DNA of 60,427 bases, the filler included, from Jimgerdemannia flammicorona (taxonomy: Eukaryota), in NCBI GenBank assembly GCA_003990765.1. It is 3 parts of 3 records of this genome, joined end to end, with 100 filler letters (N's around TTAATTAATTAA, not from the genome) between each part and the next. Parts side by side here need not be neighbours in the genome. Positions count along the whole stretch, not along the records: positions 1 to 20,080 come from RBNJ01001768.1; 2 more parts are not named here. One strand, given 5' to 3'. The translations under genes were made by a program, and so were the position numbers. This document shows positions 359 through 46,745 of this stretch, in pieces; within the stretch, counting starts at the first letter, position 1; every line of letters starts with the position of its first letter. Below the pieces are notes generated by a model that saw only the letters and a list, made by a program, of their open reading frames with translations, made no database searches and was not told where the DNA came from.

Positions 359-1026
359 TATAAGAGGGTTGCTTTTTAAGGTAACCATTACATAGTTCTG
401 GAAAGGTTTTCTGGATATTCTGAAAGACTGTTTTCTTATGGTCAAGATCAATTTTGTATGGAGTACATCCTCTATGCTTATTGATTTTAAGATCAGGTTG
501 ATATCTCAATCAAAGTCCTTTTTTGGGACTAGTTCTGGATGTTCAGGATTTTCTGTATTTCAGAAAGTTCAAGAAACTAAGACCAGCTTAGTTGAATTAG
601 CATATTGCTGCAGACAATACCCAATTAGGAAATTTTGTGATGGGGTTAGGAGTAGGACCTAATGGGGAGTGGATTTACTTAAGGGTGGTTTGTGGGTTAT
701 TTGAATGGGTTTATTTGCTATTTATGATATTGCTATACTAGGAGTAGTTGTGTGAAGGGATATGGTGGGGAAGTATTTAGGAATGTTTTTGTGTGTTTGA
801 GTCTGAGATTCTGAGGTCTGGGGGAGGGGGTATTTATACTAGTGAGGGGCTATCTGGACTATGCTGAATATGGATATAGCACTAAGTACTTTACTGAGTC
901 GGAATGCAGTCACATAGTACAAGTGTGATCTGACATATCAAGAGATCATCTGACTGCTGAGTCAGTTCATAGTCACATTGTACAAGGCTACTCTAACTAT
1001 ACTATGACTGCTAGGCTATTTATGAT

Positions 1027-3336
1027 TTAGGTACTGTCTGGGTAGTCCTCAATGATATCACCATCGATTGCATCATCTCTGATAAAGTAGTTGTCCAGGA
1101 AAAGTGGTTCACAGATTACTTCTCCTTCTTCACTGAGGTAATAATACATTGGAACTTTGTCTCCATCCCATAAGATGGCATCGTCTGTCTCATATGCTGG
1201 ATAAGGTATTGGTGGGTGAAGGAGGGGTGTATCATCTTTGCTTTTATTGGTTTCACTATCTGCATACCTTCTATAGGTTATGGCACTATGAGTTGCAGGG
1301 TTGTAGTAGGCTGGTGGCTGTGGTTCATGTCACTCGTACTCAGATGGTGGAGTGGTTGGTTCAATCTCGAGAGTTGTCTGGAGGTACAGGTTGTATTCTC
1401 TGGTCTCTTCATTATAGTTGAAGTAATTGGAGGTGAATGTAGGTTAGTATTCATACCAGTAGTCATTGTCCCAATAAGTCTCGTATACTGTTATAAATTA
1501 TTGTAAGTTCATTGGCAAGGTTGGTGGTATGATCAGGGTTGGCAGAGATCCTTGACTAGGGGTCATGTCGGCATCAGAGGGATCATTGTCTTCTGCTTCA
1601 TTTTCATCAAAGTGGATTATATTGTAGATGTCCTTCATATTTTTTTTTTTTTTTTTTTTTTTTTTAATGGACTCACGTCCCATGGATTTTTATTGGAAGG
1701 GAACCTAGACTATATAGGCCAAAACCCTCTCCCACCACCCACCAAGCACTGCTCCCCCATTAACCTAGGCTAGCTATTGTCCAGCAGCTCAACCATGCCA
1801 GGCACAGCAGAGCTGATAAGCTCGTACCTCATTCTGTGCACCATGCTCTCCCTACTACTAGGGGAAACCCAACCATATGCCAACGACCGAAAGTGCATGC
1901 CTGAGAACCCAACGTATGTACAAGGCCATGCCCGAGCCGAATAGCATAGCCCCTGCCACCCCAAAGAGAATGACAGGCAAAGAAAAAAACCCTCATCAAA
2001 GCACAACATGGTGGGTAGGGCCTGGTTCTCCCAGTTGAGGTGAGTAAAGGACTTACATGTAAGGCGGGAGGAAACCCCCAATACCCCACTACTCAAGCCT
2101 GCAGGCCTCAATCACATTGCCATATCAGCTCCCGGTTCTAGTTGAGTGCAGCCAAGATGCCTGAAATGAGTAGCCTCGGGCCCCCCGACCCCCCCTGATG
2201 ACTGGGGCCTCACCCTGCTACCCGCCAAAAGAAGCTGAGAGTGACACCTACCATCTAACCATACTGCACCAATCAAAAGGCCCCACCAAAGCAGTACCTG
2301 CCCCAGCCCCGACGACCGCCCCCAGCCTGGCACCCTACTGGTTCACCATAATCACCCTTCCACCTATCTGTGATGGCCATCTCCCCTCCCATCCTGACAA
2401 TACCTGAAAAGCAGTTACCTACACCAGAACTGCACTCGCCGGGAAGCTCGCCAAAGCCAGAGGGCCCCACCATAGGCACCGAGGACCTGCAGGTAACCTA
2501 TACTGAGCACTTGATGCCCAAGGTCGGCCGACTCTCTACATAGTCTGAGACATACTGAGATAACTCCTTGTTGGCGATGGCAAAAGGAAGAAGGCGCCAC
2601 ACCAAAACGGGTACACCCCAGATGCAGCTGAAGGCACCAGAATCCACGAAAAAGTGGAGGAAGCACCGATCTGACACCGATAAAGGGGCAACTCAGCACC
2701 ATTGCCCTCCTCCCACCATACTCCTGCAGGCACAGCAAACCAACTCGAGGTAGAGGGGGTAATATTAGGGGAAAGGGGACTCGGAAGGTTGCCTACCAAA
2801 CCTTGTGACCAGTAAGGTAGTGGAGAAAGAAGCTAGTAGATGTCCTTCATAGCGTATCCAACTTGGAGCATTTGCAGGATCTGATCATTGGGGTGTGGAA
2901 AGGTTCTGTCTGTAGTTTCGATATACTTGAGGTACTTGTGGTTGAGTTCTTGTATCATGTCATCAATTTGGCCATAGGACAGGGTAGCAACCATTTTAGC
3001 TGTGGTAACTCAGAGGTGGGAAATAATAGTACTATACTTGTAGAAGAGTTCTCAATGTTTGCAGGTGATGAGCTTCTGGTGTTGAGACATCTGAGTAATG
3101 TCTGTATTGTGGTGGTGTTCAATCATGTCTTCCAGGAGGCAGCTGATCTGGTAGTAGCTTGAGATTTGTCTGATTCAGTGGACCTCACTAAGTATGTTCA
3201 GAGTATTCCATCAGGCTTCCATGAAGTAGAGGGGTACTAGGCTATGGATATTCATGAGGGGCAGAGGGGGTGTGGCTTGGTTGACAATGACATTCCAAAT
3301 ATCAGCATGGATATAGGTATAGATCTTGGTGGTTAT
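1027..3336 (-). pseudogene. Family-A LTR (U3) accessory ORF, 3'-LTR copy, ~365 aa after removing the LINE
   Basis: Removing 1640-2851 leaves 1098 nt (366 codons) in one frame. The start is ATG->ATA, and stops are CAA/CGA-type transitions. Confidence 0.75.
1640..2835 (-). mobile_element. 5'-truncated L1/Tx1-like LINE 3' end with poly(A)
   Basis: Poly(T) at 1640-1665 and AATAAA on the minus strand. 16-bp TSD GTAGATGTCCTTCATA at 1624-1639 and 2836-2851. The same tail occurs at 60217-60427. Confidence 0.85.
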
Positions 3337-3624
3337 GTTTGTGTGTTTAGAAGTTGTAGTTGTTGTTTATTTTGGTTCTTTGATTCAATGCGTCTCAGTG
3401 CTCAGTATATATGCATTTGATCCTGATTAGTAAGATTCTGTTTGTGTAAATCTTGTGTTCTGTGACTTCATATTGACTCAGCTTTGTACACTGTGACTTT
3501 GGTTTGACTCAGCTTTGTGATCAAGCAGGTGATTTCCAGATTTGTTCAGAGGTCATGTGTAATTTCAGTAGCTTGTTCAGAGGGTAACATGTAATTTCGG
3601 TGGCTTGGAGGTTGTGTACTTATA

Positions 3625-3640
3625 ACTCTCCCCTTCTTAG
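3625..3640 (-). promoter_or_regulatory. Polypurine tract of element A
   Basis: Minus strand CTAAGAAGGGGAGAGT immediately before the 3' LTR. Confidence 0.85.
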
Positions 3641-3859
3641 CTTTTGATGTCCTTATTGAGGCCTTCTAATTTTGTTCACTGGTACAGAGAGAATAGGCTT
3701 GTTTTTAGTTTTGCTATTTTTCCAGAGGGTCAGTATTCTTGTCTTGTTTTGCTGAGTTCTTGGTTTGGTTTGCAATAATTATAATGTTCAGGAGGATAAT
3801 ATATAGTATGTACAGATAGGTGTGGAGTATTTAGTTCTAATTGTTCAAGGAATCATATT

Positions 3860-6800
3860 CCTGGACTAGGTCAGTAGCATTCTGGAGATTAGTCTTGGGT
3901 TCCCAGGTTGTATCATGGATCAGGTAATCTTTCTATTTGACAAGGTACTTAGGGTGGCTCTTGTTGCTACGTTTGTTGAGGATTTGTTCAACTTCATACT
4001 CTTCTTAGTCATTAATAATGACAGGTACAGGTGGTTCGGTGGTCCAGTTTGGAAATAGCTCGTCATCATTCTTATTATATCACTTGAGATGTCAAACATT
4101 AAAGACTAGGTGAATCTTAATGGTATCTGGTAGTGCCAATTTATAGGAGATTGGAGAAACTTGTGCAATGACTTCAAATGGTCCAATGAACTTGCTGTTC
4201 AGCTTTGTAGATGGTCTGTGCTTGAGGTTGTCAACTCGGTATCCTCTGATGTCTAAAAAGTTTCTTCTCAGTTGTGTTGGTTAATATACTGTGACTGTTA
4301 TTCTTGAGCTCATGATAAATTCTCAATGGAAATCTGGCTTAGATTGCACATTCAGAGTAAGAATTCTTCAACAGCTTTGACTGTGGAGGGTTCTTCAGTG
4401 GTTTGGACAAGTGTCAAAGGGGTGTTTGGGTTTTGTCCAGTGTTGGTAAAGAATAGGGTCATTCTGAGAGAGGCTTGTTTGCTATTGTTATAGGCAAACT
4501 CAACTACAGTGAGGTGTTTATGCCAGTCATCTTATCTGTAGGAAACATAGTTCCTTAGCATTTGTTCCAGAGTTCAGTTCATTCTTTCAGTTTGGCCATC
4601 AGTTTCTGGGTGAAAGGCTGTGGACAGTACAAGTTTTGTTCCAAGGTATGTATGGAGGGCTTTCTAAAAATAGCTGGTGAATTTCGGGTCTCGGTCACTA
4701 ACAATGATCTTGAGAAGACCATGATAGCAGAAGATATTGTCAAACAAGAGTGTGGCTATGTCTGGTGCTGTTACAGTAGTGGTAGTAGGCACAAAGTTAG
4801 CTTGTTTGCTGAGATAGTCCATAAAGACAACAATTGCATCTTTCCCATTCTTAGTTCAGAGTAGTTGTACAATAAAGTCTATAGAGATTTGTTTCCAATT
4901 AGCAGATGGTACTGGGATAGGGTGAAGTAAGCTGGGTTTTGCTAGTGTTGAGGACTTGTTTCATTGGCAGGCATTACAGGAAGTGATGTAGGTTTTGAGC
5001 TGATCTGCCATGCAGGGCCAATAGAAGTTTTGGGAGATAACTTCGTAACATTTATCAAATCCTAAATGTCCAGCTATAGGGGCATCATGATATTTGAATA
5101 GAATAGTTCTTCAGAGGTCTCAGTTGTTTGGGACATACAGTCTGTCTTTGTAGTAGATAGCGTTATCCTTTAGTTGGTATTGATGATACTGTGTATACTT
5201 GTTAGCATCATTACTATTCAGGATTTCTCACAGTGCTTGAGCTTTCTTATCATCAACACATGCTGTGATAATTTGTTCTATGATGGAGTTTGTAACCAAG
5301 GTGAGAGTTTGGATAACCTCTTCGATTGGTGGTCTGGAGATTACATCAGCAACAATATTTTCCTTACCAGGGTGATACTGGATTTCGTAGTCAAAGTTGG
5401 TGAGGACTTTCATCCATCTGGCTTGCTTTTGAGAAAGGGTAGCCTGCATCTTGATATTGACTAATGATTTGTGGTCAGTCAATATGGTGAAGTATGCTCC
5501 TTCTAGGTAGGGTCGCCATTTGATCAGAGTATCTATGATGGCTAGCATTTCCTTCTCATGGGTTGCATAGTTAATTTCAGTATCATTGAACTTGCGGGAG
5601 TAATAGGCCACAGAGTGTCCTTCTTGTATGAGTACTGCTCCAAGGGCTAGGTCAGAGGCATCAGTGGTAACTTTATATAGTAGTGCAGGGTTTGCTGCTT
5701 GAAGTACTAGAGTGGTTATCAAGGTATCCTTTAGTGCTTGAAAGGTGATATCTTGCTCAGGTCTCCAAGTTACAAGATTGTTGAAGTCTTTCTCTTATTT
5801 TATAGTCCAAGGTTGTTCTTATTTCTTACTATGCTTGGTCATTTGGGTGAGAGCGGTAGTGATTTTAGCAAAGTTGGCAACAAATTGCCTGTAATAGTTT
5901 GCTAATCCCAGGAATAACTGGAGGTCTTTCAGCTTCTTGGGTCTGGGCCAATCCTTGATTGTGGAGATTTTGCTGGGATCCACTTTGATTCCATTTGGAG
6001 TGACAATATGTCCAAAGAATTGAATTTCTTTCAGGAGAAATTTACACTTGCTGAGTTTTGCAAAGAGTCAGTTTTCTCGGAGTTTCAGTAGTACTAGTTC
6101 AAGGTATTCAAGATGTTCCTCCAGGGTTTTGCTGAAGACTAGGATGTCATCAATGTAGACAACAACAAATTTATCCAGGTATGGATGCAGAATGGTTTTC
6201 ATCAGTGTCTGGAAGGTTGCTGGAGCATTAGTTAAGCCAAAGGGCATAATAAGGAACTCAAAGTGTCCATAGCAAGTTCAGAAGGCTGTCTTATAGATGT
6301 CTTCTTCTTTCATGGCAATTTGCCAGTAACTATTTCGTAGATCAAAAGAGCTCATGAATTGTAGGTTGGTAAGTCTATTGAATATTTCATTGATCCTCAG
6401 TAGTGGGCAACAGTTCTTGATGGTCTGTTCATTGAGATCACGGTAGTCAATGCATATTCGTAGGTCTCCTCCTTTTTTAACAACAAAGAGGACTAGTGTG
6501 CCATAGGGTGATATACTGGGTCTGATGAATCCTTGTTCTAGGAGTTTGTCAATTTCTTTCTTAAGTGTATCGATTTCTCTCAGAGATATATGGTAGATTG
6601 ACTTGAAGGCTGGTTTGGCATCTGGGATAGTCTTGATGGCATAGTCTACTGCTTGTTTAGAAGGTAGGCCTTTTGGGAGCTTCTTTGGGAATATGTCTCG
6701 AAATTTCTGGAGTAGTGATCTGACATAGCTGTCAACTTTGGAAAAATATTCTTCAGGGTTCTCAAGTTCTCCTTTGGGTGGGTGGATGGAGATGGCAAAG

Positions 6801-7260
6801 AGGGGGCATTTCTTAGCCAATTTCTTGAGTTGTAGTTTGTTGATGTGGGTAATCTTTGGTCCAGGATCACTAGAATTAAGTGAGTCCTTTTCACCTTGCA
6901 GTTTGAAGCTATGGTGTCCTTTCTTGATGGTCAGAGAATGGTTTACCCAATCGATCATGGGGTTCTCTTGTTTTAATCATAGAGTCCCAAGGATGATTTC
7001 ATTATCAGGAAGTGGTACAATTTGGAGGGTAACATATACTCGATAGTCACCAATTCGGAGGGATAGATTGTGAACTTCTTTGCTAATAACATGTGAGGTT
7101 CCATCAGCTGTAGCAACTGCTTGAGTTTGTTGTACTAGAGAGATAAAGACCTTGAGTCTTTTGGCTGTCTCTTCATTGATGAAGTTGCCTGAGGCACCAC
7201 TGTCTATCATAATCTTGACAGGTGCTCAGTTGGCAAAAGCCTTAAGTGTGAGCAGTTTGT
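3860..7260 (-). pseudogene. Element A pol: protease, RT, RNase H, integrase, chromodomain
   Basis: IDSGASGNF; RT DLRICIDYRDLN and VYIDD; RH TDASDLALGAVL; IN FHPETDGQTE; GPF motif; chromodomain EYEVEQIL...YLVK...TWEP. Many transition-derived stops. Confidence 0.93.
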
Positions 7261-7319
7261 CTGATCCAATGGTGGTGATTTCAGTTGTAGGAGCTTTCCT
7301 TCTATTGATTCTTCTTTAA

Positions 7320-7450
7320 GCCAGTTCATTGATACAAGAGAAGCAATCATCAATCATTCAGGAAGAGTACATTCCAATGCCATGGGGGCATCAGCTACTT
7401 GGTATATATTCATCTTCGATTTTCTTATAGAATTATTCTTCTTTGTTCAT
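7320..7450 (-). other. CPHG-x-CxxC module between dUTPase and protease of element A
   Basis: In frame with both neighbours: FYKKIEDEYIPSS*CPHGIGMYSS*MIDDCFSCINEL. Confidence 0.7.
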
Positions 7451-7479
7451 AGTAGGTTGGGCTGGGGCTTTGTTTGATG

Positions 7480-7880
7480 AGCCAAATCCTTTGGATCCTT
7501 GGATAGTGGGCAGTAGTTCAGACACTTCCTTGACTGTCAGGGTTGACTTGATTTTTTCGAATAGGATCTGAGCAATGTAGAAACCAATAAGGATCTTGAA
7601 GAGTGTCCAACTGTAGTTTTGGATGAGGACAATAATTTCGCCTGTGTAATCCTTGTCAATGACTCCTCCTTCTACTGAGAGTCCTTTCAATGCTAGGCTG
7701 CTGCGACAGTATATTCTTCCAATATGTCCTTCAGGGATTTGGATACTGATTTCTGTGTAGACTTGTTTGACTTCTCAGTTGGAAACTATAGCTTCTTCAG
7801 CTGTATACAGATCATATCCAGCTGCTTTCTGACTTCCTTTGGTTGGGGCCTTAGCAATTTGTCTTAACTTGACAAAGTCC
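7480..7880 (-). pseudogene. dUTPase domain of element A (between gag zinc knuckle and protease)
   Basis: AAGYDLY, RSSLA, GGVIDKDYTGEI, IAQILF and GSKGFGSS motifs. Confidence 0.92.
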
Positions 7881-7949
7881 AGTGTTCTGGTGGTCAGGTT
7901 GTTGAGGTGGTACAGAGTAGTAACTGTTGCTCATGTTGCTGTTTGGAGA

Positions 7950-10060
7950 TTTCAGTTAGGGCAGACACTGGCCATGTGTCCTGTCTTTCAGCAATAGAAG
8001 CATGCTCCACTTCTTCAAAGTTCATTCCTTTCACCTTCAGTAAGTTTCTTGAAGATACTTGGCTGGGTAGGTTTGTGATTTCTAGGTGTCCAAGAGGTGG
8101 ATGTGGAGAGAGCTCAGGATGCTTCATACTTGGGTTCTTCTTTCTTGGTCCAAGTCTTTTCCTTATTATTGAATTGTCTTCATGGCAGAATTGGTCCAGC
8201 TGTTAGGATTCACTTGACCATAGTCTTAATTCTTACCAGGCATCATTGTTGGTGGTCACAACTAACTGAGCAGCCTTATTCTCGGATTTTTCTAGTAAGC
8301 CATTCAGGCAAGGCATCAAATAAGTGGTCTGCTCTTATACTATTTCATACTTCATCATTGGCAATGTATCCTAGGCCAATAGTGTTCAGGAGTGACTTGA
8401 GTTTTGTACAGAAGGTTTCGAATTCTTCTTTGCCATGTATATCAAATTTGAGATTGCAGAGTTTTACTCAAGATTCAGCAATCATGGTTTTGCTGTGGTA
8501 TTGAGCAATCATGAGTTGTTTGAGTCCAGGGGCTGCAGGATGGGCTCCATATCCTGGGGCATTGTTTGCTGCATTCTGAGCAACTACTGCAGGTCAGATA
8601 TCCCATGTGAGGGGTTTTTTAGGAAGGGTTCACCACCATTCTTCAGCAGGTCCTCGGAAGAATGTAACAACTCAGTGGACATAGGCTGTAGTGGTAGCAA
8701 AGAGTTGTTCCAGTGTGTGGTCTTGATTGTTTATCAGAATGCAGTCAGCAACTCGCTCATTGGTCCATTGATTGGCTTCGAAGTTGGTGTCAACTATACT
8801 AATGAAGCTTTGGACTTCTTGTGCAGTACCATTGAAGGTAGATAGGCTCAGATTTTTAGTAGGTCAGGTCTATTCAGCTAAGGCAGTAATGGTTGCTGTC
8901 ATTATAGCTATTTGGGCTGTGAGATCAAGAATCTGTTAGTTTGCTATGTTGTTTGCTGAAGGCAGTTGGACTGCTGATAGTAGTGTTACTGGTACTACTT
9001 GAGGTATTGGTGCAGAGTGTGATGGGGTTCTTTGAGTCTGTATAAGTTGCTGAAGTAGTAGTTGTGGATCTGGAGTAAGGGCTTGATAGATAGCTGTTTG
9101 TTATTGTGTAGATGTATTCTGTCCTGATGGGAGTGTGTCTCCTTTGGTAGTGTATCCGGGATCGAATTCAGTGAGATACTCCTCCTCCTCTTCAGTTTGG
9201 TTCCCATGTAATTGGGTTTGTTCAGTATTGAAGTAGACAGAATCAGTTATATATCTGATTTCAGAGGGACTTAATTCAAAGTCAAGTTCAGGTTCAGTAT
9301 TGGTTTCAGATTCAGGTAGGGCTGTAGCAGGGCCTGCCTCAGATTCAGAATTAGGTAGTTGATGAAGGGTTTCTCTTACTTCTTCTTTAAGAATATGGCA
9401 GGCCTTACTGTTCTGGAATTGGTAGTATAATGCGGTCTTGGTCCTGGTACAGTGAAAGTCGGTAGAGTTGAGCCACTTGGCTACAGAGACTTGGGCTTCA
9501 TGAGAAACTAAGGCTAGGAAGACTGCTGCTGGTTGTCCTAGATTGCTCAGATTCGTGGAGCTGACAAAACTCTTATTGAGAAGAGTAAAGAAGGCTTCAA
9601 TAAGACCTTCTTCATCTTGACTTGCTGGGTATAGTGCAAGGAGTTCGATGAATAGGGTTTTGCCTACTTGCTGGTTTAACCAGAGTACTTCTTTCTTTGA
9701 ATGAAGTTTATCCCACTTGTTGCAGGTGTGGAGGTCAAATTGTCCTTGTACATCAGGTTCAATTCTCTCCAGATTGTCAGATGGTTCAGGATAAATTCCA
9801 GTTCAGAGGTTGGGCTTTATACCAACTTGTAGGAATTCTCAGAAGGGTTTGTAGTGGGGTAAGGAAGTGTCTTGAAGTGGAATTGGATTATAAACTGCTA
9901 CTACCAAGTTGTAAGAGGGTTGCTTTTTAGGGTAACTGTTACATAGTTCTGGAAAGGTTTTATGGATATTCTGGAAGACTGTTTTCTTATGGTCAAGATC
10001 AATTTCATATAGAGTACGTCCTCTATGCTTATTGATTTCAAGATCAGGTTGATATCTCAA
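7950..10060 (-). pseudogene. Element A gag with long in-frame N-terminal extension that crosses the PBS into U5
   Basis: Zinc knuckle CFYC*KTGHMASVC near 7960-8005 and capsid-like FRGPAEEWW. The frame continues upstream with few CGA/CAA-type stops. Confidence 0.75.
9895..9906 (-). promoter_or_regulatory. PBS of element A (tRNA-iMet-like TGGTAG...)
   Basis: Minus strand TGGTAGTAGCAG, 3 nt from the LTR end. It resembles element E TGGTAGCAGTAG. Confidence 0.7.
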
Positions 10061-10576
10061 CCAAAGTTCTTTTTTGGGACTAGTTCTGGATATTCAGGAT
10101 TTTCTGTATTTCAGGAAGTTCAAGAAACTAAGATCAGCTTAGTTGAATTGGTATATTGCTGCAGACAATATCCAATTAGGAAATTTCATGATGGGGTTAG
10201 GAGTAGGACCTAATGGGGAGTGGATTTACTTAAGGGTAGTTTGTGGGTTATTTGAATGGGTTTATTTACTATTCATGATATTGCTATACTAAGAGTAGTT
10301 GTGTGAAGGGATATTGTAGGGAAGTATTCAGAAATGTTCTTGTGTATTCGAGTCTGAGATTCTAAGGTCTGGGGGAGGGGGTATTTATACTAGTGAGGGC
10401 TATCTGGACTATACTGAATATGGATGTAGTACTAAGTACTTTGCTGAGTCAGAATGCAGTCATGTAGTACAAGTGTGATCTGACATGTCAAGAGATTGTC
10501 TGACTGCTGAGTCAGTTTACAGTCATGTCATATAAGGTTACTCTAACTGTATTATAACTGCTAGGCTATTTATAGT

Positions 10577-11832
10577 TTAGGCACTGTCTGGGTAGTCCTC
10601 AATGACATCACCATTGATTGCATTATCTCTGATGAAGTAGTCATCCAGGAAAAGTGGTTCATAGATTACTTCTCCTTATTTGCTAAGGTAATAATACATT
10701 GGAACTTTGTCTCCATCCCACAAGATGACATCATCTGTCTCATATGCTGGATAAGGTGTTGGTGGGTGAAGGAGGGGTGCATCATCTTTGCTTTCATTGG
10801 TTTCACTATTTGTATACCTTCTATAGGTTACGGTACTATGAGTCACAGAGTTATAGTAGGCTGGTGGCTGTGGTTCATGTCACTCGTACTTAGGTGGTAG
10901 AGTGGTTGGTTCAATCTCAAGGGTTGTCTGGAGGTATAGATTGTATTCTCCAGTCTCTTCATTATAGTTGAAGTAATTGGGGATGAATGTAGATTAGTAT
11001 TCATACCAGTGGTCATTGTCCCAATAAGTCTCATATACTGTTATGAATTGTTATAAGTTTATCAGCAAGATTGGTAGTGTGATCAGGGTTGGCAGGGATC
11101 CTTAACTAGGGGTCATGTTAGCATCAGAGGGATCATTGTCTTCTGCTTCATCTTTATCGAAGTGGATTATATCATAGATGTCCTTCATGGTATATCCAAC
11201 TTGGGGCATTTGCAGGATCTGATCATTGAGGTGTGGGAAGGTTCTGTCTGTGATTTCGACATACTCGAGGTACTTGTGGTTGAGTTCTTGTATCATGTCA
11301 TCGATTTGGCCATAGGACAGGGTAGTAATCATTTCGGTTGTAGTAACTCAGAGGTGGGAAATAATAGTGCTATACTCATAGAAGAGTTCTCGATATTTGC
11401 AGGTGATGAGCTTCTGGTGTTGAGACATCTGGGTGATGTCTATATCATGGTGGTGTTTGATCATGTCTTCCAGGAGGCAGCCGATCTAGTAGTAGCTTGA
11501 GATTTGTCCAATTCAGTGGATCTCACTAAGCATGTTCAGAGCATTCCATCAGGCTTCCATGAAGTAGAGGGGTGCTAGGCTATGGATATTTGGGGTGTGG
11601 CTCGATTGACAATGGTATTCCAAATGTCAGCATGGATATGGGTATAGATCTCGGTGTGGTAGTGGTGTTAGACAAAGTAGTTTTTCATCAGGAAGGAGTA
11701 GGGGGGGAGGCCCCCCTAGGGGGATCAGATAGGAGGGGGGCTCACTGTATTTATATAGGATAGATGAGATTAATAAAGGGAAGGAGTCCAAGTGACTATA
11801 AAAAAAAAAAAGGTATAGATCTCGGTGGTCAT
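10577..11832 (-). pseudogene. Family-A LTR (U3) accessory ORF, 5'-LTR copy
   Basis: ATG ACC ACC GAG at 11832. Interrupted by an insertion (11657-11811) and a 13-bp deletion near 11590. One frame runs from 11590 to the stop at 10577-10579. Confidence 0.75.
11657..11811 (+). mobile_element. Short poly(A) retroposon (LINE 3' tail or SINE-like), second family
   Basis: AATAAA and poly(A). 16-bp TSD GGTATAGATCTCGGTG at 11641-11656 and 11812-11827. Absent from the sister LTR. A homologue lies at ~16040-16145. Confidence 0.85.
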
Positions 11833-12120
11833 ATTTATGTGTTTGGAAGTTATAGTTATTGTTTGTTTTGGTTCTTTGATTCGACATGTCTTGGTGCTCG
11901 GTATATATGCATTTGATCCTAATTGGTAAGATTCTGTTTGTATAAATCTTGTGTTCTGTGACTTCATATTAACTCAGCTTTGTGCACTGTGACTTTGGTT
12001 TGACTCAACTTCGTGATCAAGCAGGTGATTTCCAGATTTGTTCAGAGCTCATGTGTGATTTCAGTGGCTTGTTCAGAGGGTGATGTGTAATTTCGGTGGC
12101 TTGGAGGTTGTGTGCTTACA

Positions 12121-12900
12121 CCAGAACAATCCAGATCAATTCCTATAAGGATTAATCTCAGTTTTCTAAGACCCCAGTATCCAGATTAGACTCCCTCAAG
12201 ATCCTATCTTTATCTCCTACTTTGTAGAGGAAAATGTCATAGACTGAAGAGCCCCTGATCTCTTTGCTCTCTCTACTACTAAATATAGTAATGTCATCTC
12301 ACTAATTGATATATATAAAATATATAAAATATACAAAATAGATGAGATACTTACAGAAATATTTGCTGACCTTATCTTCTTTAAAGATATCCTGACCTCT
12401 GATCTTGATAATAGTGATGAAGATGAAGTCCCTAGAGTTCTAAATATTCTGCTCTAAGTTCTTTATATAACTATTGAAATTATTCTAGTATTCTGATCTT
12501 ATATAACTATTTATATAGATACTCAAATTTGTACTTATAATCTGAAGTTTTCTGTATTCAAGTACCTTATTTATTTAGTTATTGAAATTTATATTTAGTT
12601 TTATAACTTAGCAATCATTGAATTATATTTTATATAAATATCTCTCTCATTTCCTTTAAAATAAACTCAGTATTTAAATACTCAGTATTAAAACTACTTA
12701 AGAAGTATAGAAGTTCTGGTCCTTTACTCAATTTTAAGTAAGCAAATCCAAGAGACAATAGAACAGTTTAAAGATAAGATATTTGAGGACTATAAGATCT
12801 TAAAAAGATACTCCAATAGAACTTGCTTATAAGAAACTTATAGTTGGTCTAAGAGATATATCTTGATATATTTGGAAAGCTTAGTGCCCACTATATAATA
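12121..12900 (+). repeat. Family-B LTR remainder (ORF 3' half with stop at 12455-12457, then R/U5), strongly decayed
   Basis: Reverse-complement match to 36344-37100. Ends CTATATAATA (from CTATGTGACA). No PBS follows. Confidence 0.85.
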
Positions 12901-13280: not shown

Positions 13281-15601
13281 TGTAATGGTTCTAGTTTCTA
13301 AATAAGGAAGTGACTTATTCTGATGATTCTAAGTAGCTCAAAGAGATACTTAAGGATTCAAGTATTCTCAAAGAATTTCTGAGAGAAAATATTCTGAGAC
13401 TTTATTCATGAGAACAAAGGGGATATTTATACAAGATCTGAAAGAAGGATCTGGAAGAATCTGAGAAATCAAAGGAAAATATCAAGAGGAAAGTTCTTGG
13501 CAAAGATGACAAATGATGATAAATAAAGTTCTACAAGTTTCCAGAATATTCAGTGACTAGCTAAATAAGTACTAGAGGATGCTCAGCACCAAGAAAGGAT
13601 TTCTAAGCATTTAGAAAGTACTAGAAGGTTGTAGAATATTGAAGAAAGACAAAGAAAAGAAATAAACTATGCTAAAATGTTACATCTCCCTCTCTTTAAG
13701 AATCAATATCCTTGTTGAATTCTCAAAGTTATACATAATAAATAATAAGACTAAAAGAAACTTTAAATTAAATATATCAACTCATTGGCAAGGATTGGTC
13801 ATCCTTATATAAGGCAAGGGCCAAAGTATTATCTTGATTAGATGAGAACTGGTTCGAATCTCATTGGTTGTAGGATTTATAGAGTTTTCCTATATCTCTT
13901 GTTTCTGATGCTATATCTCTTAGAGAGCTCTGATGCATAATGTACCTGATCAGCACAGTAGGTCATCTACTATCCAAGAGGAGAACCTCACAGGCAGTCA
14001 ATGAGTTTCTTTTTACTTGAACTCTTAGATGAGGTCTTGGGAGTTCTTGAGATTGGCAGTAGGTTCTCAGATAGCATCATATTCAGGGTAATCCATCCAC
14101 TTGACTAGGTATTCTATGCAATGGTATTGGACTCACTTGTCTAAGATTTTCTCAACTTCATACTTGATGTGGTCTTCAACTATGACTGGTGCTGATGGTG
14201 TCAGAATTCAGCCAAGATATGGAGGTGACTGGTTCTAGACTTTAAGTTGTGACACATGGAATACTGGGTGTATATGCATAGTTGTTGGCAAGTTGAGGTG
14301 GTAAGACCAGGTGGAGACTTGCTTGGTGATCTCAAAGGGTCTAAGGTATTTGGGCTGGAATTTGGCTAACTAGTGGTTGACTTGAGATTGAGCCTTAATG
14401 TTGTTGGCTTTGAGTAGAACTATATCTCTAATATTGTATATAACATCTCACTAGTGCTCCCAAATGAGTCAAATCAATTCAAATCAAATCGAATTGAGGG
14501 TTAAACAAGTCGAATTGAATTGGGGATTTTTCAATTCAAATCAATTCGAATCAAATCAAAAGTCAAATCGAATTGAGAGTCTGATTCAAACCCTAATTTT
14601 CAAAATGCAATAACTCAGCATAGACTCATCCAAATCTAACATACTTTAGCTTGTTAGAATTACATTAATATGGTGAATCTAACAGGCTAAAATATGTTAA
14701 ATTTGGATGAGTATTCGTCGAGTTATTACATTTTTAAAATTAAGGTTCGAATTGAACTTCAAATCGAATTGGACCTTTGATTCGATTTGAATCAAATTGA
14801 ATTGGACCCTTGATTCGATTTGTTGGGAGCACTATATCTCACTGCTTCTTATCTGCATACTTAGCTTGATGTTGCTGAGCCTTTTGTAGATTCATAGTGG
14901 CGATCTTGAGAAGGGAATCCATTTTGTCAATAAGGTTCTAGGCTATAGGGACTTGTGTGTGACTGGATTTCTGGAATGGGACTAGGCTTGCAGGGGTCTT
15001 GGGGTTTTGACTGTAAAGTAGCTGAAATGGGGAAAGACTAGTTGATGATTGGGTAGCATTATTGTAGGTGAACTTGATATAGATCAGATAGTGGTCTCAA
15101 TTATCTTATTCATAAGACATATAGTTTCTGAGCATTTGTTCAAGTATTCTGTTCATTTACTTGATCTGTCCATCAGTTTGAGAGTGAAAGGCAGTGAATA
15201 TAGTGATTTGGGTTCCAAGGGTCTTGAAGAGTGCTTGTTAGAAGTGGCTTGTGAACTTAGAGTCATGGTTACTGATAATTACTCAGGGAAGTTCATAATG
15301 GCAGAAGACAGTCTTGAAGAAGATTCTTGCAATTTCTGGGGCAGTGGCATTAGTTGTGGTTGGCTCGATGATTATAATCTTAGTGAGATGGTCCACAAAT
15401 ACAACAATAGCATCATAGCCTGTTTTGGTTTGTGGGAGTTGCACAATGAAGTTCATTGTGACTTGTTTAAACTTCTTGGTCAGAATTGACAAGGATTGTA
15501 GAAGACTGGTGAGTGCTTAGTTGCTTGACTTATTTCTTTGGCAAAGATCGCAGCTTTGGACATACTCCTTGATTTCCTTGAGCATATTTGGCCAGTAGTA
15601 G
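13281..15601 (-). mobile_element. Element C: truncated chromovirus related to E (integrase, chromodomain, PPT, 3' LTR 13281-13684)
   Basis: LTR resembles 54308-54770. PPT at 13685-13700. Integrase FIVQLPQTKTGYDAIVVFVD and chromodomain YEVEKILD...YLVKWMDYPEYDAI*EP. Confidence 0.9.
14452..14834. mobile_element. hAT-type MITE, 383 bp, inserted in element C integrase
   Basis: 12-bp TIR TAGTGCTCCCAA/TTGGGAGCACTA. 8-bp TSD CATCTCAC/TATCTCAC. AATCGAATTG subterminal repeats and a central palindrome. Confidence 0.9.
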
Positions 15602-16030
15602 TATAAGAGGATTGCTTTTTAGAGTAACTGTTACATAGTTCTAGAAGGGTTTTTTGGAAGTTCTAGATGTTCTAGAAGACCGTTTTCTTATGGTCAAGAT
15701 CAATTACATATAGAGTATGTCCTCTATACTTATTGATTTTAAGTTCGGGTTGACATCTCAACTAAAGTCCTTTTTTGGACTAGTTCTGGATGTTCAGGAT
15801 TTTCCATATTTCAGGAAGTTCAAGAAACTAAGACCAGCTTAGTTGAATTGGCATATTGCTGCAGACAATACCCAATTAGGAAATTTCATAATAGGGTTAG
15901 GAGTGGAACCTAATAGGAAGTAGATTTACTTAAGAGTGGTTTGTAGGTTATTAAATAGGTTTATTCGCTATTCATGATATTGCTATACTAGAAGTAGTTA
16001 TACATATCAAGGGGTATTGTGGGAAAGTAC
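15602..16030 (-). repeat. Partial third copy of family-A LTR (U5/R)
   Basis: Matches 9910-10330. It truncates the element C integrase. Confidence 0.9.
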
Positions 16031-16039
16031 TCAGAAGTT

Positions 16040-16145
16040 GTATTCGGATTGTTCAGATAGGGGGTGGGATCACTGTAATTATATAGGATAGATGGGTATT
16101 AATAAAGAAAAGGAGTCCAAGTAACTATAAAAAGAAAAAAAAAAA
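16040..16145 (+). mobile_element. Poly(A) retroposon tail, same family as 11657-11811
   Basis: Shared CACTGTA.TTATATAGGATAGATG...AATAAAG...GGAGTCCAAGT.ACTATAAAAA. The 5' boundary is approximate. Confidence 0.75.
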
Positions 16146-19363: not shown

Positions 19364-20080
19364 TTAGAGCAGAAAGTTCAGGATCATGGGAGTTTCATCA
19401 TCATCATCACTGAAGGAGATGAGATCCGCGAATTCGTCATGTAGGTCACGCGTCTCATGTACTTCGTCATTTTCGCGTGCCTTGATGTTGCGCGGGATGA
19501 CGTCATCGATGACGTCATCATGTTCGGGTGTGGTGGGAAAATCGGGAACAAGGTCTGGAGCTCTCCAGTCTATGAGGTTCTCTTCCACAAAATAGGGGAC
19601 AAATGTGGGGTCCTGGGGGGATCTAACCTGGATGCTTGAGCCTTGGAATACTGAGATCAATCCTTGCAGGAATTGGTCTGGGTTGTTCTGAAGGATAGGG
19701 TGCCAGAAGTCTTCTACTTCTTCGCTGTTGAGGGTGATGGTGGACTGGGCTTCTGTAGCTACTCTGGCTTCTAGTGCATTGATGCGGTGGGATGACAGGT
19801 CTCTGAAGTCTGAGACTCTAATATACTCCAAGTTGGGGATTGACCATGGTGCATGCCTGAAGATCTGATGGATCTTCTTTGCTGTCCTTGCCTCACATAG
19901 GTCTATGGGGGTGGCATCTTGTAGCTCTTGAGGGCTGGCCTGTGGGAACTCCCGGCAGAGGAGGTTTCCTATTTCGTATTCCTGCCACATTTGGAGGCAT
20001 TCGGTGGCAATGGTGATCCTTATTTCCATTTCACGGCAGTAGAGGATAAAGTGATAAGGGTCTGCAGTACCCAGGTTGAT
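19364..20080 (-). CDS. Family-B LTR accessory ORF, open, 5'-partial
   Basis: Stop-free from the contig edge to 19364 and closely similar to ORF 36792-37607. Confidence 0.8.
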   Translation of the reverse strand: MNLGTADPYHFILYCREMEIRITIATECLQMWQEYEIGNLLCREFPQASPQELQDATPIDLCEARTAKKIHQIFRHAPWSIPNLEYIRVSDFRDLSSHRINALEARVATEAQSTITLNSEEVEDFWHPILQNNPDQFLQGLISVFQGSSIQVRSPQDPTFVPYFVEENLIDWRAPDLVPDFPTTPEHDDVIDDVIPRNIKARENDEVHETRDLHDEFADLISFSDDDDETPMILNFLL

Positions 20081-20180
20081 NNNNNNNNNNNNNNNNNNNN
20101 NNNNNNNNNNNNNNNNNNNNNNNNTTAATTAATTAANNNNNNNNNNNNNNNNNNNNNNNNNNNNNNNNNNNNNNNNNNNN
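20081..20180. other. Artificial contig linker
   Basis: N44-TTAATTAATTAA-N44, giving stops in all six frames. Confidence 0.98.
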
Positions 20181-20470: not shown

Positions 20471-22318
<1,848 letters not shown>

Positions 22319-23907
22319 TCCTGGGCTGTGGGAAGGGTTGTTGCGTCGAGAGAATGAGCAGTGGCTTTTGTATACTCTCCGCCGTCCATTTTCTCAATTG
22401 TAGCAGTCCATCCGTGACAGTCGACATATAACCTGTTCTATGCCCGCATTCTATCTTAATTACTCACGTGAATTTCCTTATTTATTATGGTCTTAGCCTT
22501 TCGAGTTGTGTAAATATTCGGTGGTTTACATAAAGCAAGTCAACAATCGCTAAGGCGGAAGAGAATTGCTAATAGCCGCACCCGTCTTATTGAAATACCA
22601 CTGTGCTCGCGGCAATCAAGTCAACGAGCCAGGATTTTACGAATATGACCGCCACACCAGATTTGTGCCTTTGTGCCTTTGTGATTGGCATCACGGCATG
22701 CCATTACATACGTGTTTGTAGTACGACATGCTCTGAAACTGAAGCTAGTTGCCTCTCATCTAGGAACCTGTTCTTCTCGTTGTCACACGACCTATGGTAT
22801 ATTCAGCCCCTAATTCTTTTGCCATTCAATTTGCACCCATAGAGTTTCCCCGAGATAGAGGTCTCCATAGTATTCCATGCGGCAAGTTGTCCAGAATAAG
22901 GTTGTTCGAACATATCGAAAAACCGTTTTGAGCGTGGGCAATGCCCTTCCGAAACCGAAGCACTCGCCCCGGTTTATTCATTCAATATGATCGTGCGAAC
23001 GACATATCTTGCGTTCGCTACCACATGAAACGCGACAGATCAGCCGATTAGGTAATGGATACTCGCTCGTAGATTAATCTACTCCAGTTGTCACATTTTC
23101 GTCAGACCGTTGAGCTTAATTATACTACACGAGATGCATCCGTTCATACTGTTGTACCCCTTGCAACTTTCCTCTAGTGAAGCTTATCCATCCTCCGTTG
23201 GCATAGATTCAATGTTGTTGAATGCAGGATGTAATCAGGGTACCTTCGACCTTTGACAAAACGAGCTCCTAATATGCTTGTGAAACATCCTGAACACGGA
23301 GGCTGAGTTGCTTACAAGAGAACACCAGCAACGGAACCCTGCATCATAGTGGGTTGACATCTACGGATGAGCTGATTGTGGATGCCTACCGACCTCGCCA
23401 TCCGAAATAGGAAGCGGTCGCTAGGACTTATGCAGCCGCGGACGAGTCTCATTTACCATAGCTCCGCGGAGCGAACCTAAACTAAAAGATCTCCTAGTTG
23501 ATGTGAGTGGATGCTGCAAACCACCCCGCCAATTTCTTACGTAAAACCTTTAAGACGGCATATTTTCCCGAGATGGGCGTATGTAACCCAGTCTTCGGAC
23601 ATCGAAGCCGCACAAACTTTTGGTCATATTGTTCAGCTGACATTGATGTCATATATTTAAAACTATATCATCCTTTCGAGTAATTAACCTGTTGCGATGG
23701 GCACGAACTATTCAGACGAAAAAACAGGAGGGGAAATTCAAAAACAGATAAACTTTATGTTCGGCAAACAACGTCTTGCAACCCCTGCTGACAATGTAAT
23801 GCTCAACAAATCCCAGCGATCGTACGGAAAATGTATGTCAACATTTAATTTCCGTCCCGAGTCTGGATAAGATCAACAAACACATGATGATTAGGGCCCA
23901 TCTAGAT

Positions 23908-26763: not shown

Positions 26764-28158
26764 ATGTCTCTGAAAGGAAAAACCCTCTTCATCACCGGCG
26801 CCTCCAGGTAATTAAAATCATTAGCAATACCAGTATGTCGGCTTTGTCTGAAAAATAATAATAAAAAAATAACGCGTGTTGCTTGTTCCAGGGGTATTGG
26901 CTTGGCCATCGGTCTCCGTGCCGCCAGGGACGGTGCCAACATCTGCATTGCCGCCAAGACCGCCGAACCTCACCCCAAGGTATAGAATTCACTGTGCGCC
27001 CATACCTTCCGTTCGACCGTCCTCGTGAATTCCACCCACCGACCCACATTCCCACAGCTCCCGGGCACGATCTACACGGCCGCGAAGGAGATTGACGAGG
27101 CGGGCGGGCAGGCGCTCCCCGTGGTGTGCGACGTGCGTAAGGAGGAGCAAGTGATTGCGGCCATCGAGCAGTGCGTGGCCCGGTTCGGCGGGCTTGACAT
27201 CGTCATCAACAACGCCTCCGCCATCAGCCTGACCAACACCCGGGACACCCCTTTAAAGATTTACGACCTTATGAACCAGGTCAATGGAAGGGGAACTTGG
27301 CTCGTGTCTAAGGTGAGGGAGGATCGGGAAGGCCTGTGGAACTGGATATTCGAGGGACTTGAGAGAGGCGTGCCTTTGTAGTGATCGACATAAACTCATC
27401 CCCCTTAGCACGCCATCCCGCACCTGATCAAATCGCGTAACAACCCGCACATCCTCAACATCAGTCCTCCGCTCTCGATGCGCGAGGAGTGGTTCAAGGA
27501 CCATGTGGCCTACACTATCTCCAAGTTTAACATGAGCCTATGTGTGCTCGGCACCGCCGGCGAGCTTCGCCCGCACGGCGTCGCTGTCAACGCCCTCTGG
27601 CCCCTCTCGCTCGTCGACACCGCCGCCGTCGTCAACATGCTCGGCGGAAAGGAGCTAGCCAGCACTGGGAGGTGAGGGGAGAAGGGAGACCAGGAGTGGG
27701 AGGATGGGAATAGGGTTGGATTGGTGGGAACAGGTTGATCCGCACCCGGCACGAGCCTCACGCTCTACCGCCTTATTTTTCTCTCATCGCATGCACCACC
27801 ACAGGACCCCCGATATCATGGCCGACGCCGCCCACGGCATCCTCACCAAGGACTCCAAGACCTTCACGTAAGCCACTTTCCTTTCATTCCCTCCCTGCCA
27901 TTTCTTTCGTCCTTCCCTACCTCCTATTCTCATCTCACCTCCCATCCCACTACCAGTGGCAACTTTTTGATCGACGAGCTCTTTCTGCGCGAGGAGGGCG
28001 CGACAGACATGGACAAGTACAGCGCAACACCGGGTGCGACAACGATTGGCGCAGACTTCTTCATTGAAAAGGAGATCTTCGACAAGGTCGACAGGCTCAG
28101 GGAGCAAGCTCAAAAAAGGGGATTGCCTGGGAATAAGGCCAGGGTCGCGAGGATTTAG
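26764..28158 (+). CDS. HSDL2-like short-chain dehydrogenase/reductase; exons 26764-26807, 26892-26979, 27058-27312, 27409-27671, 27805-27867, 27957-28158
   Basis: TGASRGIG, AAKTAEPHPKLPGTIY, NNASAI, catalytic YTISK and VNALWP. All introns are GT-AG. C-terminal ARI is PTS1-like. There is no SCP2 domain. Confidence 0.92.
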
Positions 28159-29123: not shown

Positions 29124-30959
29124 TATCATATAGTGGTTGCTGAGTCCTTCAAATACGCCAGATTTTCTTCAAGATGTATCTCTTAGACTAACTCAAGTTG
29201 TTATAAGCAAGTTCTTATTGGAGTGCCTTCCCAAGGTCTTATAGTCCTCAAACTTCTTATCTTTAACTATCTTATTATCTCTTAGATTGCTTACAAGGAA
29301 GTGTGTATAAGTAAAACCGGAACTTGACTGAAACTTGACTGACTTTATTTCAGAGGAAATAAGAGAGATATTTATACAAAATATAATTCAATGGTTACTA
29401 AGATATAAAGCTAAATATAAATTCTAATAACTAAAACTACTAAGTTCCGGGGCTGGCATTATTTAGTATCATATCAAAATACCAGTGCTGGAATAATTTT
29501 GCATCACCTCAGAATACTGGTGCTGGTATTATCCAGTGTAACAAAGAACTTAGAGCAGAAAGTTCAGGACCATGGGAGCTTCATCATCATCATTATCACT
29601 GAAGGAGATAAGGTTCACGAATTCGTCATGCAGGCCACGTGTCTCATATACTTCATTGTCACACATTTCATGTACTTCGCATGGTATGTCATGCGAGATG
29701 ACATCATTGATGACATCATCACATTCGGCTATAGTGGGAAAATCAGGAACAAGGTCTGGAGCTCTCTAGTCTATGAGGTTCTCTTCTACAAAATAAGGAA
29801 CAAATGTGGGGTCTTGAGGAGATCTGATCTGGATACTTGGACCTTGGAATACTGAGATCAATCCTTGCAGGAATTGGTCTGGGTTGTCCTGAAGGATAGG
29901 GTGCCAGAAGTCTTCTACTTCTTTGCTATTGAGGGTGATAGTGGACTGGGCTTCTGTGGCTACCATGGCTTCTAGTACATTGATATGGCAGGATGACAGA
30001 TCTCTAAAGTCTGAGACTCTAACATACTCCAAGTTGGGGATTGACCATAGTGCATGCCTGAAGATCTGATGGATCTTCTTTGCTGTTCTTACCTTATATA
30101 GGTCCATGGAAGTAGTATCTTGTAGCTCTTGAGAGCTGGCCTGTGGGAACTCCTGGCAGAGGAGGTTTCCTATTTCATATTCCTGCCACATTTAGAGGCA
30201 TTCGGTGGCAATGATGATCCTTGTTTCCATTTTGCAGCAGTAGAGAATGAAGTGATAGGGGTCTGCAATACCCAGGTTAACACTAGGAGTCCTTCTTGAG
30301 TGGGTCCTCATGGCTCTTCTGATGTCTTGGAACATCCTTTCCTCGATCAAGATACCTTGATGATTTCTTGACCTTGAGGTTTGGCAAGCAGCAGGCATTT
30401 TGTTTGTGATAAGTCTTTGAGCTATTTTTGGGATTAGTGGTTCTTGTTGATTGCTGCTACTGTGGTTCCTTGATCCTTCTTTTATATTCTTCAGGATGCT
30501 TGTGCTGTGGTCACAATGACTCACAGTTGGTCATCATTGCTCATCTCATATGCCATATGATCTTCTTGTGCTCCAATCTGGTGGCTTATAAGGAAAGGCT
30601 GTCTCCTGTACTAATGTCATCATTCTGGGGTCACCGTTATATCTTCCTCCTGAATAAGGATCTTCCTGAGCATCCTTATTCATTGTCCAGTCCTGAAAAA
30701 TTTGCTGATCCCATAACCTCTGGCAAGGGGTTGAAAACTGGTGTTTATGGGCTGGCGTCTTCCCTTTGTATTTTGGTGTGATGGTGAAGGGTCGCTCTCT
30801 TTATATAGAGCAAGGGCCTGATTCTGATCTTGAGCAATCAGTTGACGGTTCAAACTCCTCTGACTGCAAAAGTCTTCATAGATGAGTAGTTGTCAGTGCC
30901 ATATCCCTTAGAGAATGGTCTAGACAGATAGCCTGCTGATCACGAGACATGCTGTTACA
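29124..30959 (-). repeat. Element B 3' LTR (~1.8 kb)
   Basis: Colinear with 36344-37850. The outer end is tentatively the minus-strand TGTAACA at 30959. No clear PPT is visible. Confidence 0.8.
29550..30398 (-). pseudogene. Family-B LTR accessory ORF with two point stops
   Basis: Single frame MPAA...LNFLL*. Stops at 30192 (CAA->TAA) and 29766 (TGG->TAG). Confidence 0.88.
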
Positions 30960-33430: not shown

Positions 33431-33709
33431 TTCCTTGAGTTTGGCTCATAGCCACTCTCTGTAGGCAGGTGGTATGGGTCTGGCTTTCTGGTAGATAGGC
33501 TTGGTATCACCAGTGTCAACTTCGTGGTGGTACTTGGGTTCTTGATTGTAGATATCCCTAAAGTCTGTAGCAAGTACTTCTTTGTTCTGGTATAGGATCT
33601 TGAGAAGTTGTTCCTCTAAGGGAAAGTTTTCTCCAATGGTATATGTGTGCTTGTTCTGGTCCTTGTTTTTCTTGTGCTCAAGTTCAGTAATCTTGGTGGC
33701 AGCATAGGC

Positions 33710-34120
33710 TCCTCTTTCAGTAGATCTAAAGCCTTGTTCTCCTCTCTTGGTTTTGATAAGTTCAGTGGCTTCTATGATCTTGGGCTTCTTAATTTCGTAG
33801 ATCAGCATCTGGGCAATCCTGTCATGCTTCTTGACTTCGAAGGGGGTAGTGTGGTTGTGATTTCTGACTATGAGAAAAATCTCACCAGTGTAATCAGGGT
33901 CAATTACTCCTCCTTCAACTGAGATTTCGCTTTTGGCCAGACTGCTCCTGGTTTTGATAATTCTGGCATGGTTTTCTGGCAACTTGACTCCAATTCCAGT
34001 GCCAAGTAGGGTGGTGGTCTGTGGTTTGAGGGTAGCATCTTAGATGCTGGCAAGATCCATTCCTATGGCTCCTTCAGTCTTATATTCTGGGATCTTGGCT
34101 TCAGGGTGAAACTTCTTGAC
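33710..34120 (-). pseudogene. dUTPase domain of element B (between protease and RT)
   Basis: GAIGMDL, RSSLA, GGVIDPDYTGEI, DRIAQML and RGEQGFRST. Confidence 0.92.
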
Positions 34121-40255: not shown

Positions 40256-40355
40256 NNNNNNNNNNNNNNNNNNNNNNNNNNNNNNNNNNNNNNNNNNNNT
40301 TAATTAATTAANNNNNNNNNNNNNNNNNNNNNNNNNNNNNNNNNNNNNNNNNNNN
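40256..40355. other. Artificial contig linker
   Basis: N44-TTAATTAATTAA-N44. Confidence 0.98.
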
Positions 40356-46184: not shown

Positions 46185-46745
46185 CAGAATACTGGCCACT
46201 ACACTACCCCACTCTCTGCCAGCCAATTGAAAGGTCTTACTGAGATAATATCTGCTCCAATTCCAATAACTGCCCCCTGTCTGATATATGACTAGTTTGC
46301 TATAATTATCCTTTCTTCTATCTATGATGGCTCTATATTAGAACTATACTCACTGGAAAGCTCACCAAAGCTCAGAGGGCTCTATCACAGATACTGACAA
46401 TCTGTAGATAATTTATACTGATACTTGATACCCAAGGTTGGCTGATTTTCTATATAGTTCATGATATACTAAGATGATATCTTATTGATAATAATAAAAG
46501 GAAGAAAATGTTATACTAAAACAGATATATCTCAGATATAGTCAGAGGTACCAGAAATTACCAAAAAGTGAAAAAGACAATGATCTGATATCAATAAAGG
46601 GGTAACTTATTACTATTGTCTCTCTTTTACATATTATATCTTTATAGATATAGCAAATCAATCTGAGATAGAGAGGGTAAAAGTAGATAACTTAGAAGAT
46701 TGTTTACCAAAATTTTGTAACTGATATAGTAGCAGAAAAAGAAGC
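46185..46745 (-). mobile_element. Heavily decayed LINE fragment, same family as 1640-2835
   Basis: Colinear with ~2200-2835 with pervasive C->T/G->A changes. It abuts the end of the USP-like gene. Confidence 0.8.

Follow-up and report, generated by a model that had tools for sequence, protein, structure and literature searches.

Long terminal repeats (LTRs) are described as ordinarily non-coding, with the sag gene of mouse mammary tumor virus (MMTV) as the standard exception (PMC4667437). The question treated here is whether the LTRs of about 2 kb carried by a retrotransposon of the fungus Jimgerdemannia flammicorona (assembly GCA_003990765.1) hold a gene of their own. The window analyzed here, meaning the whole stretch of 60,427 nucleotides, contains on its minus strand (12120 to 359) a Ty3/gypsy element of a very abundant family, designated family A, in whose LTRs the initial annotation had proposed a hidden open reading frame (ORF) of about 365 amino acids (aa). 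We can state with high confidence that the family-A LTR carries a real frame coding for 365 aa, that 5', 3' and solo LTRs all contain it, that it was under purifying selection as the family multiplied, and that copies decay through C-to-T change once inserted. On sequence grounds this frame, located in the putative unique 3' (U3) region and referred to below as the U3 gene, is a real and undescribed accessory gene in an unusual place.

Both window copies of the U3 gene, which lie on the minus strand, are damaged. In the 3' LTR (359-3624) the gene spans 1027-3336 and is interrupted by a non-LTR-type insert of 1212 bp with a poly(A) tail (1639-2850, minus), bounded by a 15-bp target-site duplication (1624-1638/2836-2850). 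As initially described, removal of this insert leaves exactly 366 codons, that is, 1098 nt in segments of 162 and 204 codons (3336-2851 and 1638-1027), with no start codon and seven internal stops. The copy in the 5' LTR (10577-11832) has its ATG at 11832, nine internal stops and a 13-bp deletion at 11591/11592, correctly noted as restricted to this LTR; it is also split, just past the ATG, by a short poly(A)-tailed insert resembling a short interspersed nuclear element (SINE) (11657-11827, plus; 171 bp, 16-bp duplication), which the initial annotation did not mention. Relatives of the 1212-bp insert occur in the window at 46340-46618 (70% identity) and 60257-60405 (85%), and a relative of the 171-bp insert at 16053-16140.

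The individual lesions listed in the initial annotation were recovered, namely stops found only in the 5' copy at YYQIG and TPSQ and adjacent-codon stops near NLQQ, as were stops common to both copies, of which there are five. Because these five are shared, the argument from complementation between the two LTRs is weak, and with seven and nine internal stops and a 3' copy lacking a start codon the claim that the ORF could be reconstructed from this pair did not hold. The sequence pattern explains the shared stops by recurrent deamination at hot spots. Indeed, 182 of the 187 differences among 2034 columns of the LTR pair are transitions, and the window copies of the gene keep 9 and 8 CpG dinucleotides compared with 19-43 in open copies. 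Columns in CpG context are five times more variable (heterozygosity 0.36 vs. 0.07) and hold 74 of 164 internal stops, and the shared-stop columns are also stopped in 13-24 of 34-39 sampled copies. Alternatively, a gene damaged already at insertion may have been the source of these stops.

The natural copies settle the matter more directly. A search of the genome (231 Mb, 35,354 contigs) by DNA similarity gave 40 matches, and the 38 lying outside the window were fetched; in these, the U3 frame contains 1.32 stops per 100 codons, compared with 4.54 and 10.69 for the two remaining sense frames and 1.84, 6.62 and 7.08 on the antisense strand. The terminal stop is kept in 38 of 38 covered copies and is the sole fixed stop of the frame, compared with 3-17 fixed stops in each other frame, and an ATG stands at the start site in 50 of 53 copies. 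A protein search, in which top-scoring matches favor open copies, found matches free of internal stops at 30 of 119 scored genomic places. Among 20 open copies fetched, 14 yield a gap-free protein of 365 aa from ATG to stop, in five the open frame starts only at a later methionine (338 aa), and one is truncated. One might object that no gene exists and that base composition alone left a stop-poor frame, since one antisense frame is nearly as poor in stops (1.84 per 100 codons). That antisense frame, however, has three stops fixed in >95% of copies, for which an antisense gene was also rejected, and the sense frame combines a fixed ATG and stop with codon-position bias, avoidance of indels and a relative at the protein level; the objection is thereby refuted, and we give it almost no weight.

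Both LTR ends were found at 29 of 58 loci, with lengths of 1989-2104 bp; 14 of these LTRs are 5', six are 3', seven are solo LTRs with a 5-bp duplication, and two were left unassigned. At least one solo LTR (L058) carries a complete open frame. The U3 gene makes up about half of the 2-kb LTR, in line with the initial proposal that it explains the unusual size of the repeat.

Given dozens of open copies, some of them in solo LTRs, it could be thought that the host has co-opted the gene and that selection on the fungus retains open solo-LTR copies. With about 4.4 stops per copy on average, nevertheless, about 1% of copies should be open by chance, and 1% of the 4,000-5,700 first-look candidates, which are not copy numbers, would amount to tens of open copies arising without selection. 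Moreover, the open copies merely retain more CpG, as given above, and the window pair drifts neutrally, so that co-option appears quite improbable.

Selection was estimated from 22 copies, a random draw from the near-complete ones among the 38, with deamination sites modelled, transversions counted apart and CpG columns left out; since copy pairs are not independent, the resulting ratios of non-synonymous to synonymous change (pN/pS) are descriptive. The deamination-site model was used because C-to-T bias can mimic a low simple pN/pS, and the simple kappa-weighted value of 0.38-0.42 indeed overstates selection on transitions. Under the model, the transversion pN/pS of the U3 gene was 0.20, vs. 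1.83 and 2.31 for the two alternative sense frames, and its transition pN/pS was 0.67, vs. 1.3-1.5. In five matched elements, transition pN/pS was 0.49 for the U3 gene, 0.54 for reverse transcriptase (RT)-RNase H and 0.54 for gag, and transversion pN/pS was 0.31, 0.16 and 0.19, respectively. Furthermore, the gene shows 0.29 indels per kb against 5.6 upstream and 11.1 downstream in the LTR, about 20-40 times fewer than its flanks, a contrast partly biased by the choice of copies by their similarity to part of the gene. Judged from these sequence comparisons, there is purifying selection during multiplication of the family at the level of gag and pol, and none on the inserted window copy, whose LTR pair gave a pN/pS of 1.25 (40 differences, 26 non-synonymous and 14 synonymous), which matches the expectation for decay after insertion.

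The same estimates bear on whether the frame is a captured fragment of a host gene, a passenger from which the element gains nothing. LTR elements are known to capture genes, which supplies a precedent (PMC7264820, in the part available). Selection between copies equal to that on gag and pol, on the other hand, largely refutes this origin, all 58 fetched copies lie in LTR sequence, and a search of 1.84 billion representatives gave no cellular homolog; a captured passenger is thus very unlikely.

In this context, the layout of the LTR becomes relevant. The U3 gene begins about 290 nt inside the LTR, is wholly contained in it and has the sense orientation of gag-pol, the order along the sense strand being the TG end, a TATA-like run, the ATG, 365 codons, the stop, TATAAATA, AATAAA and the CA end. 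The TATATA noted upstream of the gene by the initial annotation was located at 11902-11908 (minus; 3406-3412 in the 3' LTR), about 70 nt 5' of the ATG, and is a candidate U3-gene promoter; its AT run is kept in the five commonest variants, which cover 48 of 53 copies. About 190 nt past the stop, TATAAATA (10382-10389, minus; 831-838 in the 3' LTR) is the putative promoter of the genomic RNA, and 40 of 48 copies are identical across 12 nt of this region. It is followed after about 120 nt by AATAAA (10261-10266, minus; 710-715 in the 3' LTR), a putative poly(A) signal, and the arrangement of TATA and poly(A) signals is as presented in the accessible part of PMC3601003. The gene would thus sit between the LTR start and the presumed genomic TATA and hence within U3, with the border between U3 and the repeat (R) region placed from these motifs.

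From this arrangement it seems reasonably probable that transcription of the U3 gene would use the gene's own TATA-like site, close to where the LTR begins, and would end at the LTR AATAAA, that any LTR, solo ones included, would be a self-contained transcription unit, and that reverse transcription would copy U3 into both LTRs. As a whole, we favor, with a probability of roughly 0.55, the explanation of a U3-borne accessory gene with its own promoter encoding a trans-acting regulator. The product would be a soluble protein, helical in its N-half and rich in acidic, aromatic and proline residues in its C-half, that regulates transcription of the element in trans, either as a transactivator or as a counter to host silencing. 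Taken by itself, the regulatory role, suggested by analogy, is tentative and falls somewhat short of even odds.

The features of the protein that invite this proposal are its acidity (isoelectric point 4.2-4.3), the absence of a membrane segment in three of three copies examined (maximum 19-residue hydropathy 0.86), the composition of its C-terminal 200 aa (44-45 D/E, 28 Y/F/W and 21-24 P) and the helical prediction for its first 170 residues in a low-confidence AlphaFold model. A profile search of the 1.84 billion representatives returned four matches. P0001, from a metagenome, shows 64% identity across 250 columns (residues 115-364), where gaps are small and keep the frame, and it shares the C-terminal end; P0002, 88% identical, is probably a metagenomic member of the same family; and P0003 and P0004 were rejected as repeat-driven chance matches. 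With open natural copies, purifying selection at the level of gag and pol, indel avoidance and a 64%-identical relative outside the genome, the initial claim that the hidden ORF is real was borne out. When the genome was searched with P0001 and with the first 120 aa of the protein, the 150 matches scored were all high-scoring and of family-A level, a range in which more diverged subfamilies are not visible.

Several points weigh against the regulator explanation, among them the partial bias of the indel contrast mentioned above. The role rests on composition and analogy, and the N-half is not basic (10-15 K/R vs. 20-21 D/E in 165 aa), so that DNA binding is not evident. AlphaFold was uninformative, with a predicted local distance difference test score (pLDDT) of 37, and a fold search with this model gave no match at E 0.001, which is meaningless given the model quality. 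No family in Pfam, PHROGs or PDB sequences and no functional homolog was found for the protein, the lone sub-threshold Pfam match being RAMP (E 0.003) in one of two copies. Searches of metagenome contigs and viral contigs located no loci of the relatives, P0001 included. The upstream TATA is a mere AT run, and the transition pN/pS is just 0.67 once deamination bias is modelled. In addition, the initial annotation had made an open family consensus the test of its ORF; naturally open copies answered this in its favor, although one internal column is a stop in 24 of 39 sampled copies, which formally trips the test. This column is not decisive, because the sample was made up of the top matches to a copy in advanced decay, and the open copies settle the question directly.

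The absence of a membrane segment also touches on a different role, that of an accessory particle or cytoplasmic protein, comparable to an env-position ORF3 or to nef, which would be made from spliced or 3'-LTR-borne RNA and would aid assembly, stability or transport, its U3 location following only from a polypurine tract that lies upstream of the gene. Its sense orientation and 3' position match the sense additional ORFs (aORFs) reviewed in PMC7264820, as far as that source was available; the stop-to-stop frame is often 412 codons long, extending past the ATG; and family copies contain PPxY-like words. Against this stand not only the missing membrane segment but also a TATA-like site and a fixed ATG inside U3, and both PPxY-like words are changed in P0001, for which reason PPxY late-domain motifs were rejected. 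We regard such a particle or cytoplasmic function as unlikely, at about one chance in five.

A further proposal concerns the helical N-terminus, which might be a degenerate F-box recruiting the host Skp1-cullin ligase to destroy silencing factors. The polerovirus protein P0 is the model for F-box recruitment of this ligase against silencing factors. An F-box cluster ranked third in the Atlas feature search (residues 1-172, score 0.90), yet 83 of 256 Atlas features were common, and true matches mostly share 170 or more. Against a profile made from 30 of 150 host F-box matches, 14 natural N-termini scored 0.7-4.9 bits compared with a shuffle 95th percentile of 1.8, and residues 30-47 align with the second half of the F-box (E 0.055); the best shuffle, however, scored as high as 14.6 bits, and stretches of this protein used as controls went down to E 0.07. 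Likewise, 17 N-terminal pieces had no Pfam match at E 10, and the opening Leu-Pro of most host F-boxes is absent. What Pfam and the host profile leave is a weak partial likeness without a profile match, and a degenerate F-box is accordingly a rather improbable identity. The genome itself contains at least 150 F-box-like matches over cut-off and five Skp1-domain matches.

Returning to the U3-borne regulator, comparison with known systems places it closest in layout to MMTV sag, in which the majority of the gene lies in U3 with a promoter inside U3, and which occurs mainly in solo LTRs with purifying selection seen among dead copies (PMC4667437, in part). The family-A gene is alike in U3 location, carriage by solo LTRs, purifying selection and a promoter inside U3, which is a candidate in family A; it differs in its fungal host, its Ty3/gypsy carrier without env, its position wholly within the LTR and a protein lacking a membrane segment. 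The sag protein has a membrane anchor. No homology to sag was found in Pfam, PDB sequences or the 1.84 billion representatives.

A further comparison is with the plant and Botrytis aORFs reviewed in PMC7264820 (available part), among them env-like sense ORFs, Grande gene23, RIRE2, Retand and Boty. Such an aORF is a conserved additional gene, of unknown origin, that most members of its family carry in the internal part of the element, in most cases between pol and the 3' LTR; gene23 possesses a promoter of its own, and its product is nuclear. The family-A gene is likewise a conserved extra gene of a family, but it lies downstream of the polypurine tract, inside the LTR, with two copies per element and one in solo LTRs; it is set apart from env-like aORFs by not lying between pol and the 3' LTR and by the lack of a transmembrane segment. 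The foamy virus protein Bel1/Tas, an accessory transactivator, is made from an internal promoter and has an acidic activation domain at its C-terminus (PMC517496, in part). The U3 protein shares with it an acidic, aromatic C-terminal region, a likeness of composition only, and the two are alike in architecture and not in sequence; Tas is driven from the internal promoter, whereas the family-A gene is contained in each LTR, and no homology was found. In the literature searched, which covered few subscription papers and no Repbase-type reports or supplements, we found no report of a gene within the LTR of a fungal retrotransposon.

Concerning its carrier, the family-A element is, as assigned by domain content, a fungal chromovirus-type Ty3/gypsy retrotransposon. 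It has direct LTRs with TG...CA ends, a 5-bp target-site duplication at either side (354-358 and 12121-12125), a primer site and a polypurine tract. The 5' LTR (9910-12120, minus) has TGTA...TACA ends and is followed by a 3-nt spacer and a TGG primer-site pattern, also seen behind 14 of the 29 genomic LTRs with both ends found, with the primer-binding-site-like sequence at 9893-9906 (minus). The polypurine tract (3627-3637, minus) recurs identically ahead of six of these 29, and the ends of the 3' LTR (minus) show C-to-T-type decay. Between the LTRs, all on the minus strand, lie a 233-aa open stretch ahead of gag (9101-9802), in the gag frame in genomic copies and without a Pfam match, with a pN/pS of about 0.54 by the simple method; a decayed gag (7901-9088) with a weak zinc knuckle below the cut-off (E 0.004); a dUTPase (7433-7774; PF00692, E 1.9e-22); a decayed protease, RT and RNase H (5228-7432); and a decayed integrase with a Tf2-type SH3 domain and a C-terminal chromodomain (3702-5218; PF17921 E 9e-19, PF24626 E 6e-16, PF00385 E 2e-12, the last with 47.3 bits vs. 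a cut-off of 25.1). The pol order is thus protease-RT-RNase H-integrase, and near 4255 the window integrase has a 22-bp deletion compared with 14 genomic copies.

The canonical order of gag, protease, RT, RNase H, integrase, SH3 and chromodomain, the TG...CA ends and the 5-bp duplication are those of the fungal chromoviruses treated in PMC3248453, from which family A is distinguished by its 2-kb coding LTR, by the dUTPase that separates gag from protease and by the 233-aa pre-gag extension; the accessible part of that source contains no LTR-borne ORF. A family-A LTR remnant at 15602-16140 consists of the downstream part only, without the gene, and adjoins another short poly(A)-tailed insert copy.

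The window also contains a second Ty3/gypsy family (B), with a 268-aa sense LTR gene fully open at 36795-37598 and further copies at 29553-30389 and 19367-20104 (all minus). This gene is open in many genomic copies and has genome relatives down to about 60% identity, and the family-A element itself is inserted within a decayed, diverged copy, split into 1-358 and 12121-12454 (plus). Both families have a dUTPase, but its placement differs: in family A it precedes protease, and in family B (33446-34039, minus) it is flanked by a protease-like motif and RT. The family-B U3 protein, also with an AlphaFold pLDDT of 37, resembles that of family A in being encoded by a sense LTR gene, in its acidic tail and in predicted helices in the same order, on low-confidence models, and differs in length (268 vs. 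365 aa) and in a C-half that does not align. The first 100 residues are collinear at 22-23% identity (HHalign E 0.04-0.35), with the profile score reached by 39 of 120 column shuffles and the pairwise score by five of 300 shuffles for a region chosen afterwards; BLASTP detected no likeness between the two proteins.

Elsewhere in the window, a long imperfect palindrome resembling a miniature inverted-repeat transposable element (14532-14804, 132-nt arms, 77%) lies within a decayed integrase region and gave only sub-threshold microRNA-hairpin matches in Rfam. Host genes at 20471-22393, 26986-28158 and 43398-44711 encode a carboxylesterase, a short-chain dehydrogenase, a BTB domain and the MATH domain of a ubiquitin hydrolase. 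One host exon outside the element matches a J. flammicorona protein at 100% identity across 82% of the query, and the matches ranked after it are mostly from Glomeromycotina, in agreement with a fungal host. Runs of N with the TTAATTAATTAA spacer at about 20081-20180 and 40256-40355 mark where separate contigs were joined to make the window, to which RBNJ01001768.1 contributes 1-20080 only.

In brief, an orphan gene of 365 aa is maintained entirely inside the LTR of a fungal retrotransposon, under selection as strong as that on gag and pol. A gene so placed survives the recombination that forms solo LTRs, is missed by annotation that masks LTRs, and provides an alignable protein marker for LTR evolution. 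With a second family in the window carrying a gene in the same place, the LTR-gene layout may be a recurring strategy. It is conceivable, if doubtful, that the U3 genes of different Ty3/gypsy lineages in J. flammicorona form a single ancient family of regulators that act in trans and share a helical N-domain, and that open solo LTRs supply an activator or anti-silencing protein in trans that contributed to the expansion of retrotransposons in this 231-Mb genome. If true, solo LTRs with open genes would be no inert debris, and each LTR would be a gene cassette.

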